Of a DNA stretch of 64,000 bases, positions 27,164-60,525 are shown piece after piece. The translations under genes were made by a program, and so were the position numbers. Source of the DNA: an uncultured Poribacteria bacterium (GTDB taxonomy: Bacteria; Poribacteria; WGA-4E; WGA-3G); NCBI GenBank assembly GCA_958296135.2, contig CATQHZ020000001.1, forward strand, positions 704,001-768,000, written 5' to 3'. The notes below the pieces were generated by a model. That model saw nothing but the letters and a program-made list of their open reading frames with translations. It had not been told where the DNA came from and did not search any database. How positions within the stretch are numbered: position 1 is the stretch's first letter; each line of letters begins with the position of its first letter.

Positions 27164-28792
27164 TTAGCGTTCCAACTCTATCCATTGCGGTGCTTTGTCT
27201 CGGGTGAGGATGATGCGGCGGTGCCATGCCGTATCGTCCCTCTCTGGGAAGTCAGAACGGTAATGCGCGCCGCGGCTTTCTGTCCGGAGCAGTGCTGCCT
27301 CCGTGATACACCGGGCGACATCCAGCATATTCGCTGCTTCACAGGTGCCTTGTGTGTATTGTTCTCCCTCGTCCCCCAGGCTGAGCGGTGTGCACGCGGC
27401 TTCTGCCACTTCCTGCAATTGCGCGAGCGTTTCTTGTAACCCTTCCCCGTTGCGTTCAATACCGACGTTTTTCCAGAGTGTCTCCCGAATCGTGTGTCTT
27501 ATATCATCAACCTTGTCCGCGGAAACCATCGTTGCTGTGTCGGGGATATGGCTGTCGGCGGGTGTCACCCCCACGGTTTGGGTTTGCGCGAAGGCGGCGG
27601 CGTTCGTGCCAGCCCGCGCTCCGTAGACGAGGCATTCCAACAGCGAATTACTGGCCAAGCGGTTTGCGCCATGCACGCCGGTGCATGCCACTTCGCCACA
27701 GGCGTAGAGTCCCCGCACGTTCGTCTCTGCTTCTGTGTTGGTGCGGATGCCGCCCATCATAAAGTGCGCGCCGGGACGGACGGGGATGACATCGATGCGG
27801 ATATCTAACCCGTAGCGTTGTGTTGTCTCGAAAATTGTGGGAAAGCGTTCGACGATAAAATCGGCGGGTTTGTGTGTAACATCAAGATAGACGCACGGGA
27901 AGCCGGTCTGGTTTATTTCGTTCTGGATGGCGCGGCTGACGACATCGCGCGGGGCGAGTTCACCGAGTTCATGGTATTTTTCCATGAAGCGTTCCCCGCG
28001 GATGGTGATGAGTTGTCCGCCTTCGCCGCGCACAGCTTCGGAGATGAGGAAATTCGGTGCGCCATCGAGGCAGAGCGTAGTCGGGTGGAACTGAACGAAT
28101 TCCATGTCAATGAGTTCACACCCGGCGCGCCACGCGGCGGCGATGCCGTCACCGGTGGCTACCTCTGGATTGGAGGTGCAGGGATAGAGGCGGCCGAGCC
28201 CGCCTGTCGCCAAAATCGTCACTTTGGCATGGAGTAAGACAGGTTCGCCCTCCACGAGTGCTATCACGCCGTAGCACTGTCCTTCTGCTGTCAACACCTC
28301 CACGGCGAAGGCGTTGGTGAGGACGCGAATGCGTGCTGTATTTACGACTTGTTGCACCAAGACATCGGTAGTCTCCCTGCCGGTCGCGTCTCCTTTGTGG
28401 ACGATGCGGCGGCGGCTGTGAGCGGCTTCTTGCGTGAACCGCGGCAGCGTGCCTTCCCAATCAAAATTCGCGCCCCAATCTAGGAGTTCGGATACGCGTG
28501 GCACCCCTTCGGCTACCATCGCTTCGACAGCGGCCCTGTCGCAAATTCCTGCGCCGGCGACGAGTGTGTCTTGGACGTGCAACGCGAGGGTATCGTCCAC
28601 GTTCATGGCGACAGCGATGCCGCCTTGCGCATAGCGCGTGTTGCTCTCCTTGAGGGCGGATTTTGTCAGCAACGTCACGTCAACACCTGGCGCGGTTGCC
28701 GCGGCGGCGAGGGCGGCGCGCAAGCCGGCAGCCCCACTGCCGATGATGAGGACATCTGTTTTTTCGGATGTCGTAATGCGTTCGTTGTGCAT
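27164..28792 (-). CDS. nadB: L-aspartate oxidase
   Basis: IIGSGAAG, YAQGGIA, QFHPT, LAPRDVV, GVHGANRLASNSLLE and ESRGAH. Confidence 0.95.
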   Translation of the reverse strand: MHNERITTSEKTDVLIIGSGAAGLRAALAAAATAPGVDVTLLTKSALKESNTRYAQGGIAVAMNVDDTLALHVQDTLVAGAGICDRAAVEAMVAEGVPRVSELLDWGANFDWEGTLPRFTQEAAHSRRRIVHKGDATGRETTDVLVQQVVNTARIRVLTNAFAVEVLTAEGQCYGVIALVEGEPVLLHAKVTILATGGLGRLYPCTSNPEVATGDGIAAAWRAGCELIDMEFVQFHPTTLCLDGAPNFLISEAVRGEGGQLITIRGERFMEKYHELGELAPRDVVSRAIQNEINQTGFPCVYLDVTHKPADFIVERFPTIFETTQRYGLDIRIDVIPVRPGAHFMMGGIRTNTEAETNVRGLYACGEVACTGVHGANRLASNSLLECLVYGARAGTNAAAFAQTQTVGVTPADSHIPDTATMVSADKVDDIRHTIRETLWKNVGIERNGEGLQETLAQLQEVAEAACTPLSLGDEGEQYTQGTCEAANMLDVARCITEAALLRTESRGAHYRSDFPERDDTAWHRRIILTRDKAPQWIELER

Positions 28793-28909
28793 TTTTGGTT
28801 GTTTGACGGTTGTCGTCGTAGTGCCGTCATCGACAACGTCGATGACTACGTTTTTTCTCCTAAACCAAAATTCTTCCCTGAGCAGTGATTATAGCAGAGA
28901 CTGCCCCAC

Positions 28910-29305: not shown

Positions 29306-29417
29306 CTTTTGTCTTTCCTAGGGCAGGCACCCCGTAGGCGCGCTTTGCAAGCGCGCCTACGGGGTTTGCCTATCCTTAATCCTCAGGCGAGCCCGAACGA
29401 CAGAGATTCAGTGGGTA

Positions 29418-32219
29418 TCAAACGCTTTGCGTCAATACAGACAAACTGCGTGCGAGTTTTTCTTCTTCTGCTAATAGGCGTTCCAGATGTTCCCGCTTCT
29501 GTGCTACCACCTTTTCGGGTGCGCGCTGGATGAAATTCGGGTTATCCAACGTCTTCTGTGCCGCTGCCACGTCCTTGGCTGCCTGTTGGTGCCGCTTGGT
29601 AAGCCGCGCGCGCTCCGAGTCCAGATCGATGACACCGGCGAGCGGGATGTAAATCACCATCTCACCGATGACGGCCTCGGCGGCGGCAGGCGGTTTCGGT
29701 AGTGCTTCGGCGACGGTGATGTCTGCAACCTTTGTAAACGCGGGGAGATGCTGGCTGAGATGCGTCGCGAGCCGTTCGCGCAGGGCGGCATCGGGCGATT
29801 GGATGAGGACTTCCACCGATGCCCCGAGTGGCACGTTCAGTTCGCCTCGGATGCTCCGCACGCTCTCAATTACCTCAGTCACTGTCGCCATCGTTGCCTC
29901 TATTTCTGGATTCTCGCCGGCGGCTTCTGGCCATGGCGCGATGCAGAGAGAGGGAGTTTCGCTGTGGTTGAGTTGCTGCCAAATCTCCTCACTCAAAAAG
30001 GGCATAAAGGGGTGCAGGAGCCGCATCGTCTGTTCTAGCACGTCGGCGGCTACCCAGAGTGCTTCGGGTTCGCCGTGGGCGAGCCGCTGTTTGACGAATT
30101 CGAGGTACCAGTCGCAGAATTCGTGCCAGAGGAACGCGTAGACAGTCTGCGCTGCTTCGTGGAAACGGAAGTTTTCAAGCGCGTCGGTTGTCGTTGTGAT
30201 AGCGTGGCTCAGGCGGCTGCGTATCCACGCGATTTCCAGTTTTTCGTCGTTCGCATCGGTGGCGTGCTGACGCGGGGCGACGCGCGCAGTTTTGAAGAGG
30301 CGTTCCCGTTCGGCGTGCATCTCCAGTGGTTGGCCTGTTGTCTTCCCATGCCGAGTTGTCACGTCTTGCCTTTCTTTCTCCCGTTCTGGATAGCCTGCAG
30401 GTATGGGATGCTTTTCAAGATTCATCAGCGTGAATCGGGCGGCGTTCCAGATTTTATTGGCGAACCGTTTGCCTGCTTCAATCTGCGATTCGGGCAGTGG
30501 GACATACGGATTCGGCGTGCCAGCGTTTGCAAGCGCGAACCGGAACGCATCGGTGCCGTAGGTGGCAATCGTCTCCAGCGGATCGATGCTATTCCCCTTC
30601 GATTTGCTCATCTTCTGTCCTTTTTCATCGGCGACGAGGCCGTGCAGATAGACGGTGCGGAACGGCACTTCGTCCATGCATGCAAGCCCGAGCATTATCA
30701 TGCGCGCCACCCAGAAAAAGAGGATGTCCCACCCCGTAACTAGGACAGAAGTCGGATAGAAGGTTTTAAGCACCGCTGTCTCTTCGGGCCAGCCCATCGT
30801 GGAGAAGGGCCAGAGCCCGGAACTGAACCACGTGTCTAGCACATCTTCGTCTTGCCGCAGTTCGGTGCAGCTGCACATTTCGCACGCTTGCGGCGTGTCC
30901 ATGGCGGCGGTGACAGCGTTGCATGCATCGCAGTACCAAATAGGGAGGCGGTGTCCCCACCACCGTTGTCTTGAAATGGGCCACGGCTCAATGTTCTCCA
31001 TCCAGTGCATGAACCGCGCTGTCTCTCGTTCCGGTATGAATTTCACATCGCCGTTTTTGGCGGCTTCCATGGCGCGTTGGGCGAGTGGCTGGACGTTCAT
31101 AAACCACTGCAATGAGATTGCGGGTTCGACGATGGTGCCGCACCTGTCGTGATGGCCGACGGCATGTCGATGCGGAACGATTTTGACGAGGTATCCCTGC
31201 TCTCGCAAATCGGCGACGACGCGTTCACGGCATTCCCAGCGGGATAGGCCGACATAAGGTTCGCCGGCGTGTTCGTTCATTCGCCCATCTTTTGTGAAAA
31301 TTGTCCGCTGTTCCAAATCGTGCCGCAGGCCTATCTCATAATCGTTCGCATCGTGTCCCGGTGTCACCTTCAGGGCACCGGTACCGAATTCGGTGTCAAC
31401 ATAAGCATCGCCGATGATGGGTACCACGCGTTCCTGTAAGGGTAGCATCGCCGTTTTACCGATGAGGTGTTGATAACGTTCGTCTTCGGGATGCACGGCG
31501 ACAGCGGTATCGCCTAACATCGTTTCGGGGCGCGTCGTCGCAATTTCTAGAAACGCGGTCTTCTCTGTTGTTGAGGGTTCTCGGGGGACAGGCCCCTGCG
31601 CTACGGGATAACGGATGTGATAAAAGTTTCCCTCTATCTCCATCGGTTCGACTTCGAGGTTGCTGACGGCGGTGTTGCATTGCGGGCACCAATTCACCAT
31701 GTAGGTATCGCGGTAGATGAGCCCCTGGTTGTAAAGTGCCACAAACGCGGTGCGGACAGCTTTGGAGAGCCCTTCGTCCAACGTGAACCGTTCGCGTTCC
31801 CAATCACAAGAGCATCCAAGTTGCTGGAGTTGCGCGACAATATAACCCGCGGATTCTTCCTTCCACTGCCACATCCGGTCGGTGAATTGTTCGCGGCCGA
31901 GTTCGGTGCGGGTTGTGCCTTCCTCGGCGAGTTTTCGCTCCATGATAAGTTCGGTGACGATGCCGGCGTGGTCTGTCCCAGGCATCCATAGGGTGTTGTA
32001 TCCCTGCATGCGTCGCCAGCGGATGAGACAATCTTGGAGCGTATTATCCAGCGCGTGTCCGATGTGCAAACTGCCGGTGATATTCGGGGGTGGAATCACA
32101 ATGGCGTAGGGCGGCTTATCCGATGTCGCCTCGGCATGAAAATAGCCGTTTTCTTGCCAAAATTGATACCACTTCGCCTTGATGTGCTGCGGTTCGTAAA
32201 TTTTCGGGAGATGTGTCAT
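29418..32219 (-). CDS. valS: valine--tRNA ligase (with two atypical insertions)
   Basis: PPPNITGSLHIGH, ATTRPET, DVLDTWFSS, KMSKS and a C-terminal coiled coil. Confidence 0.97.
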   Translation of the reverse strand: MTHLPKIYEPQHIKAKWYQFWQENGYFHAEATSDKPPYAIVIPPPNITGSLHIGHALDNTLQDCLIRWRRMQGYNTLWMPGTDHAGIVTELIMERKLAEEGTTRTELGREQFTDRMWQWKEESAGYIVAQLQQLGCSCDWERERFTLDEGLSKAVRTAFVALYNQGLIYRDTYMVNWCPQCNTAVSNLEVEPMEIEGNFYHIRYPVAQGPVPREPSTTEKTAFLEIATTRPETMLGDTAVAVHPEDERYQHLIGKTAMLPLQERVVPIIGDAYVDTEFGTGALKVTPGHDANDYEIGLRHDLEQRTIFTKDGRMNEHAGEPYVGLSRWECRERVVADLREQGYLVKIVPHRHAVGHHDRCGTIVEPAISLQWFMNVQPLAQRAMEAAKNGDVKFIPERETARFMHWMENIEPWPISRQRWWGHRLPIWYCDACNAVTAAMDTPQACEMCSCTELRQDEDVLDTWFSSGLWPFSTMGWPEETAVLKTFYPTSVLVTGWDILFFWVARMIMLGLACMDEVPFRTVYLHGLVADEKGQKMSKSKGNSIDPLETIATYGTDAFRFALANAGTPNPYVPLPESQIEAGKRFANKIWNAARFTLMNLEKHPIPAGYPEREKERQDVTTRHGKTTGQPLEMHAERERLFKTARVAPRQHATDANDEKLEIAWIRSRLSHAITTTTDALENFRFHEAAQTVYAFLWHEFCDWYLEFVKQRLAHGEPEALWVAADVLEQTMRLLHPFMPFLSEEIWQQLNHSETPSLCIAPWPEAAGENPEIEATMATVTEVIESVRSIRGELNVPLGASVEVLIQSPDAALRERLATHLSQHLPAFTKVADITVAEALPKPPAAAEAVIGEMVIYIPLAGVIDLDSERARLTKRHQQAAKDVAAAQKTLDNPNFIQRAPEKVVAQKREHLERLLAEEEKLARSLSVLTQSV

Positions 32220-32221
32220 GG

Positions 32222-32800
32222 TTACGTAAAGAGCGGGACTACCCACCCGTACGCGCCTCCTTCCGTTTGATAAAGTAGATTCACCTGCCGGGTCTCGGCG
32301 TTTAAGAAGAGGAGCAGCGAGTCGCCGCCGGTGTGGAGTTCGTTTGCGGCTTCCGCCACGGTCATCGGTTTCGCGGCAAACTTCTCCGGTGCTTCAATGA
32401 TGCGCGGTGTCTCCGCGGTATCGGGGATGTCTGTCGAAGGTTCGGTTTCCTGAAGTGCCTCGGTTTCGGGAGGGTTCAGGTGTGCGACGACATCGCGATG
32501 CGGGAGCTGGTGCCGCCGGTCTTTCACGCGTTCCTTGTAACGGCGGATTTGGCTGAGGATTTTGTCTGTCACACCGTCTAGCGCGGCGAAAAGTTCATGG
32601 GTTTGGCTCTCGGCGTGAAACGATGCGCGGTTGGCTGTGACGCTCATCTCCGTTTCAAAGCGGTGCTTTTCGGCGGTGATGACGACGTGGATTTCAAGCA
32701 TCGGGCCGAAACGTGCTTCAATTTTATCGGCACGTTTTTGCAGATAAGCCCGAATATCATCGGTGATTTTGAGATGGCGGCCGGTGATGCGGATTTTCAT
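32222..32800 (-). CDS. hpf: ribosome hibernation factor (long HPF / RaiA family)
   Basis: MKIRITGRHLKIT, ELFAALD..KI..QIRRYKE and C-terminal KPMTVAEA; lies downstream of rpoN. Confidence 0.88.
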   Translation of the reverse strand: MKIRITGRHLKITDDIRAYLQKRADKIEARFGPMLEIHVVITAEKHRFETEMSVTANRASFHAESQTHELFAALDGVTDKILSQIRRYKERVKDRRHQLPHRDVVAHLNPPETEALQETEPSTDIPDTAETPRIIEAPEKFAAKPMTVAEAANELHTGGDSLLLFLNAETRQVNLLYQTEGGAYGWVVPLFT

Positions 32801-60108: not shown

Positions 60109-60210
60109 TTCCTCCTGCGTTTTTCGCGGCGGTTGCAGGTTCGCGAGGGACAGTGGACATCTCTGCAGCGAGGCTGCAGAGATGACAAAGTTAAAGTAAG
60201 TAAGGTAGCG

Positions 60211-60435
60211 TGTTTACGCGGGGCGACACACGCACATTTTCTGTAGACGTGACCGTGCTTTCGCGAGGCGACACACGCACGTTTGCTGTAGACGTGACCG
60301 TGCTGACGCGGGGCGACACACGCACATTTTCTGTAGGCGTAACCGTGCTTACACGGGGCGACACACGCACGTTTGCTGTAGGCGTGACCGTGCTGACGCG
60401 GGGCGACACACGCACATTTTCTGTAGACGTGACCG
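60211..60435. repeat. 45-bp x5 tandem repeat (alternating variants, 90-bp higher-order unit)
   Basis: Unit tgctgacgcggggcgacacacgcacattttctgtagacgtgaccg. Units 1, 3 and 5 carry cattttct; units 2 and 4 carry cgtttgct. Confidence 0.95.
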
Positions 60436-60525
60436 TGACGGCCCTCGCGCTACGGGGCCGCGGCCCGAGATGATGCTCGGTGCATCTATCGCGCTCGCGC
60501 TATGGGGCCGGGGTGGTTTCCTTCG

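Follow-up and report, generated by a model that had tools for sequence, protein, structure and literature searches.

A composite repeat read in frame in the valyl-tRNA synthetase gene of an uncultured Poribacteria bacterium

Repeats that are translated as part of conserved proteins have precedents in other bacteria. The Rickettsia palindromic elements (RPEs) were reportedly described by Ogata in 2000 and 2002. According to two accounts, Rickettsia genomes carry non-coding repeats of 100-150 nt that lie between genes and also in frame within unrelated conserved genes, where they are apparently tolerated (PMC2229807, PMC10969869). Intragenic GTAG REPs are described in another report as in-frame copies in DNA-repair genes and tRNA synthetases that also overlap gene ends (PMC3733652). 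The enzyme RAYT, according to a further study, cuts single strands at CT, distant from the GTAG hairpin, and performs strand transfer (PMC3479197). Literature searches brought up no paper that treats the Poribacteria repeats described below or reports a ValRS with a repeat inserted in it; a ValRS may be among the REP-carrying synthetases named in Additional file 3 of PMC3733652. Two general questions attach to such repeats: how those of the REP type spread, and whether in-frame copies contribute anything to proteins.

Here we describe an insert in the valS gene of an uncultured Poribacteria bacterium, found in a window of 64,000 nucleotides (assembly GCA_958296135.2, contig CATQHZ020000001.1, positions 704,001 to 768,000). 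The genome of this window is referred to as G000 and its two same-genus relatives as G001 and G002. The insert consists of a repeat, element B (about two thirds of its length), that encloses a second repeat, module A; it is read in frame and has no counterpart in the relatives (Table 1).

Borders and make-up of the ValRS insert

The G000 genome contains valS as its sole full-length copy. The HIGH and KMSKS motifs are invariant across a 28-sequence ValRS alignment, and the nearest named ValRS (77%) is that of Candidatus Poribacteria. Since valS is single-copy, the ValRS with its insert is presumably expressed and active. An earlier note on this DNA had pointed to an unusually long spacing between MNL and LEIAW, and this was borne out: the spacing is 59 residues here versus 15 in G001 and G002, with the loop being 44 residues longer than in both relatives. 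The NA..CDW spacing is 109 residues in the G000 ValRS, compared to 62-90 in the 98 others that were measured (11 of the 110 ValRS loci were not measurable). T. thermophilus ValRS (1gax) aligns to residues 4-602 and 663-927, with 12 residues between. Pfam Anticodon_1 begins at residue 665, and the insert site is a variable loop just N-terminal of it, between two helices; the insert region itself has no Pfam match. The AlphaFold model, which is poor as a whole (mean pLDDT 53, pTM 0.42) and was used solely for the local helix-loop-helix, assigns the insert a pLDDT below 50 between two confident helices. As modeled, the insert occupies a variable, floppy surface loop of ValRS. A second, shorter variable stretch is present in the editing domain (residues ~207-221), where the protein is ~12 residues longer than T. 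thermophilus ValRS.

Table 1. Repeat features of the window and their coordinates
Feature	Position	Strand	Description	Basis
valS	29418..32219	-	933 aa; open frame reaches GTG at 32246; single copy; HIGH, KMSKS intact	
Whole in-frame insert	30240..30377	-	138 nt = 46 codons, K615-K660; replaces ~3 loop codons, net +44	alignments with relatives
Element B, 5' part	30307..30377	-	hairpin minus 6 nt of right arm, frame kept	gap-tolerant alignment to B copies; BLAST
Module A	30259..30306	+	48-nt divergent version of the 45-bp unit, within B's small 3' hairpin, antisense to valS	HMM; 48-nt alignment gap
Exact 19-mer	30263..30281	+	inside module A of the valS insert	
Element B, 3' (outer) end with A-run	30240..30258	-	abuts conserved LEIAW helix codons	same junction in G002
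Second B copy, intact	28759..28854	-	3' third fused in frame to nadB N-terminus; first residues repeat-derived	
Left arm of host GTAG-REP and hairpin cassette	60142..60208	+	ahead of the A units	sequence; context common to most A loci
Tandem array of A units	60209..60437	+	5.1 units, period 45; inside loop cassette of GTAG-REP	
Right arm of host REP	60440..60453	-	ends in GTAG (minus strand)	same REP flanks a RAYT gene

Aligning ValRS with its relatives moves the borders of the insert from 30245-30410, as given in the earlier note, to those listed in Table 1. The exact identity of 30263-30281 with 60299-60317 that the note reported is real, with no extension on either side. A BLAST search of the genome with the 45-bp unit, which it had also proposed, returned 124 matches in 77 loci, revealing a dispersed family. 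That this 45-bp family as such had entered ValRS is correct only in part: the family is dispersed, but just 48 nt of the 138 match the unit, and the remaining 90 nt are element B. The opposite pattern, a stretch without other genomic copies that is conserved in relatives free of the repeat, is not what we found: the insert is absent from G001 and G002.

The match to module A exceeds chance, because the valS copy reaches E=9.7e-4 with an A-unit HMM from whose training it was left out, compared to a best E=2.7 on the reversed genome. The 19-mer occurs four times on contig C1: in valS, in two array units and at one other locus. The array 30 kb away is not the closest kin of the valS copy, which is ~80% like its best relatives; array units are not among these (best score elsewhere 39.5, best array unit 36). 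For element B, gap-tolerant alignment of the natural insert against 175 full-length B copies gave top scores of 66, 63.5 and 63, compared to a maximum of 18.5 for 53 random coding 138-mers, and two of the three best B alignments place a 48-nt gap exactly over module A. An initial B HMM detected the valS copy (E=1.6e-6), but its seeds had been chosen for resemblance to the insert; the genome-wide B HMM left the split valS copy undetected at E<10.

The B copy in valS has lost its hairpin and has no GTAG. The insert folds no better than shuffled sequences (z +0.5 and +0.6), whereas the intact B copy at nadB has a z of -2.3; its encoded peptide has a mean hydropathy of -1.58. An Rfam scan of the window gave 0 matches at gathering score. 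No contig joint that excises precisely the insert was present in four runs of one sample, though rare alleles could escape contigs. Just past the valS stop, at 29335-29362, lies a perfect GTAG-type palindrome of another abundant REP family. The 144-kb G000 contig C2 has a G+C content of 36.8%, versus 54.4% for C1, and may be foreign to the genome.

Module A and element B across the genus

Module A is nearly all intergenic and in most cases sits as cargo in the loop of a GTAG-REP. At E<=0.05 the HMM trained in the absence of the valS copy found 153 copies, of which 150 lie outside called genes, and 87 of the 111 merged A loci have a downstream REP arm by a loose pattern. A RAYT gene of G000 (L241, C1:4791155) is flanked by cassette-filled REPs of the family that hosts module A. 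The young form of A is present in one of 41 genomes, G000. We dropped the idea that A as a whole is confined to G000: diverged copies exist in G002 and G001, though a degenerate A pattern gave 0 hits in five relatives. A second in-gene A copy (L067, G000:C1:626410-626456) lies in a 710-codon gene with an N-terminal sulfatase-modifying-factor-like match.

Element B is ~100 nt long, with 292 copies in G000 at E<0.01 by iterated HMMs and 0 on the reversed genome. A 9-bp 5' hairpin, with GTAG at its foot in part of the copies, is followed by a tail of ~70 nt that carries a 3-bp 3' hairpin and an A-run. Both ends are A-rich, and there is neither a terminal inverted repeat on a single B nor an element-long stem-loop. 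Eight of the nine hairpin pairs change on both sides (94 cells versus 28.3 in shuffled alignments, reached in 0 of 500 shuffles; the copies are related, so this yields no probability). An exact GTAG stands at the hairpin foot in 66 of 87 copies in G001 and 50 of 137 in G000. Hairpin decay is alike for in-gene and other copies (7.0 versus 7.4 pairs, p=0.16). By the sequence patterns used here, B is multi-copy only in this genus: its end pattern has 76 hits in G000, 206 in G001 and 69 in G002, and 0 in 38 other genomes, while in a sample of the phylum five of the 149 genomes from other genera show one hit each and the others none. A 17-base metagenome scan yielded 120 loci with a best B-HMM hit of E=0.91, the pattern being too unspecific.

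In-frame repeat insertion of this type is common in the genus. Using gene calls from a simple gene model built for this analysis, we located 47 B copies in sense orientation within 38 called G000 genes and four in antisense (p=6e-15). Of these hosts, 32 match NCBIfam families; they include EF-G, SMC, MutL, RecN, UvrA, GcvP, BamA, AroE, PdxJ, HisH and MtaB, and some inserts are N-terminal (GlgC, RNase J, AnmK). B is translated in several frames, and because the reading frame differs among hosts there is no conserved B peptide. The sense bias is not due to stop codons, because antisense frames are more often open (179 antisense versus 119 sense open frames in 145 full-length copies outside genes). 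The sense peptide has a mean hydropathy of -0.91, compared to +0.49 for antisense, and selection for hydrophilic loops may underlie the sense bias. Intergenic copies are also strand-biased, the downstream gene being on the same strand in 183 cases versus 58, which peptide selection cannot explain.

Orthologues were checked for five B hosts. The inserts in RecN, AroE and GcvP are confined to G000 (AroE has no match in G001); at the PdxJ site G000 has the full insert and G002 a 3' fragment of it, and in G001 the site is empty. The EF-G site (L031, G000:C1:106450-106598) is filled in all three genus members, and given this genus-wide retention some B inserts may be under selection. In G001, 17 of 60 mappable B clusters are in genes; 14 are sense-only and 12 alter length by a multiple of three, three of these 12 with unreliable flanks (the 87 clusters were sampled from regions picked for B hits).

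Several hosts carry more than a single simple insert. EF-G of G000 has two extra 27-nt duplications of the 3' end of B. An indolepyruvate oxidoreductase gene (L047, G000:C1:3327935-3331786) has four B inserts, and aroE and recN beside it have one each, forming a local cluster on a single strand. In G001, one 2695-codon frame that is PorU-like by its G000 match (L071, G001:C100, 7865-15950) holds about eight in-frame B copies or fragments, and nadB contains a different B copy, internal and near the C-terminus (L256). Lon protease of G000 (L070, G000:C1:82223-82313) carries one of the four antisense copies, in frame. A double-length UvrA of 1957 aa (L062, G000:C1:469254-475127) has a B fragment inside.

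The two ends of B behave differently at gene boundaries. Where a gene faces B, its stop codon is <=6 nt away from the 3' end of B in 17 of 35 cases, compared to four of 101 for the 5' end (p=8e-9). Where the gene is on the same strand, the 3' end is followed by an ATG in 48 of 110 cases versus 12-16 in shifted windows. The valS insert, taken descriptively, has its 3' end directly against the LEIAW helix and leaves 12 loop residues on its 5' side; the AroE, GcvP and EF-G junctions resemble this polarity, again as a description only. B insertion often replaces target DNA, with no fixed duplication: none is seen at valS, AroE or GcvP, and an A-tract is present at both ends in RecN and PdxJ only.

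Origin of the insert

We consider it likely that a mobile, non-autonomous repeat makes up the insert and is translated along with valS as a passenger peptide; the best reading is that of a tolerated passenger in a variable loop, which we infer to be neutral. Module A would first have been captured into B, probably via a few bases shared at the junctions, and the resulting B[A] composite may have entered valS in one step in the lineage of this species, replacing ~3 valS codons without a target duplication. It could have persisted through the combination of a naturally variable loop, a length that is a multiple of three and a B sense strand that encodes hydrophilic residues. Later decay would have removed the hairpin while the frame was kept, the insert presumably having no function of its own. 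Movement would likely have been by copying or transferring single-strand DNA in the manner of REP/RAYT (HUH) systems. The search for a mobilising enzyme found none: B copies are absent from the surroundings of both RAYT-like genes in G000 and both Y1_Tnp loci in G002, and G001, the most B-rich genome (86% complete), has no Y1_Tnp match.

The order of these events is best read from G002, where the same A|B junction occurs at two non-valS loci, at one exactly and at the other with a single extra base. It is therefore simpler to suppose that the composite was already formed and entered valS in one step, A most likely riding in as B's cargo. At one of the two G002 loci, the orthologous site of G000 holds a plain B. 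Two successive hits on valS, with B entering first (90 nt, in frame) and A then entering the small hairpin of B (48 nt, in frame), are unlikely; they keep some weight because G000 has no second B[A] copy with the valS junction, and because A lies inside B at two more G000 loci, at other positions. Either step by itself preserves the frame, and the young A expansion is found only in G000 among the 41 genomes. However, the identical junction at two unrelated G002 loci would require repeated hits on the same bases, and the valS A copy is just ~80% like young G000 copies. Domestication, with the insert changing how ValRS contacts tRNA or binds partners, how stable it is or how the valS mRNA is controlled, is very improbable. 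The gene is single-copy and presumably essential, the site adjoins the anticodon-binding domain and the EF-G insert has lasted across the genus, but the ValRS insert is present in one of three genus members, matches no Pfam family, has a pLDDT below 50 between confident helices (in a poor model, mean 53) and lacks a stable DNA fold, and B is read in differing frames with no conserved peptide.

For element B itself, the inverted doublets could suggest that a single B represents one end of a MITE or IS-type element, the doublet being the full element and its outer ends causing transposase-driven adjacent deletions up to coding boundaries. In line with this, 27 of the 87 G001 clusters are divergent pairs with outer ends outward and none are convergent, and outer ends pile up at stops and starts. 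Nevertheless we rate this as very improbable: singles predominate (261 of 275 G000 clusters), a single B lacks terminal inverted repeats, junctions are heterogeneous and no multi-copy IS or long repeat with B ends, which could be an autonomous parent, was seen among the matches listed or at four Y1_Tnp loci. The probability is close to negligible that the insert is a chance match or an assembly error, or that B is a reverse-transcribed, SINE-like RNA. As in retroposition, the A-rich 3' end is kept in 248 of 292 B hits while 88 begin after model position 10, and 3'-end duplications of B occur, but there is no RVT_1 match in five genomes. The HMM and random-fragment controls argue against chance; against an assembly error, four runs gave contigs that cover the insert region with 0 differences, but all from a single sample that may itself be the source.

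Beyond the passenger reading, B could be an undescribed polar mobile element whose hairpin end recruits an HUH-type enzyme and whose A-rich end invades by short homology, overwriting host DNA until it meets a base or residue that cannot be spared, and which picks up cargo hairpins such as A and carries them into essential proteins. We hold this to be a doubtful, tentative proposal. If it were true, nature would have scanned whole genomes of this genus by insertion for protein loops that tolerate it, and the genus would also be a source of new N-termini.

Comparison with known systems

Taken alone, the ValRS insert most likely represents a known kind of neutral passenger. The genus provides three genomes in which dozens of sites can be compared filled and empty, and its element has a fixed polarity and a nested marker; this makes both questions, how REP-type repeats spread and whether in-frame copies add anything to proteins, testable. 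By analogy, the valS insert appears to work like RPEs and intragenic GTAG REPs, and such events are known from other bacteria.

Like GTAG REPs, B has a covarying hairpin, in part of the copies with GTAG at its foot, forms inverted dimers, lies in frame in DNA-repair genes and tRNA synthetases and overlaps gene ends. GTAG REPs are 20-40 bp long, whereas B is ~100 nt with its tail of ~70 nt; and they are described mostly at gene 3' ends, where GTAG supplies the stop, whereas B meets starts and stops with its tail and not with its GTAG end. A likeness to E. coli REP/BIME with TnpA-REP is that the host REP of module A flanks a RAYT gene in G000; unlike that system, no B-flanked RAYT was found at the four Y1_Tnp loci of G000 and G002. 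B resembles RPEs in being multi-copy, in frame within unrelated conserved genes and absent from orthologues. By their descriptions, an RPE is one long palindrome with terminal inverted repeats, whereas B is polar, with a 9-bp hairpin at its 5' side and a 3-bp hairpin at its 3' side. B also differs from RPEs in being read in several frames without a conserved peptide, in often replacing target codons and in carrying a second repeat in valS. What is new here is this nesting of A in B, together with the polarity and strand statistics.
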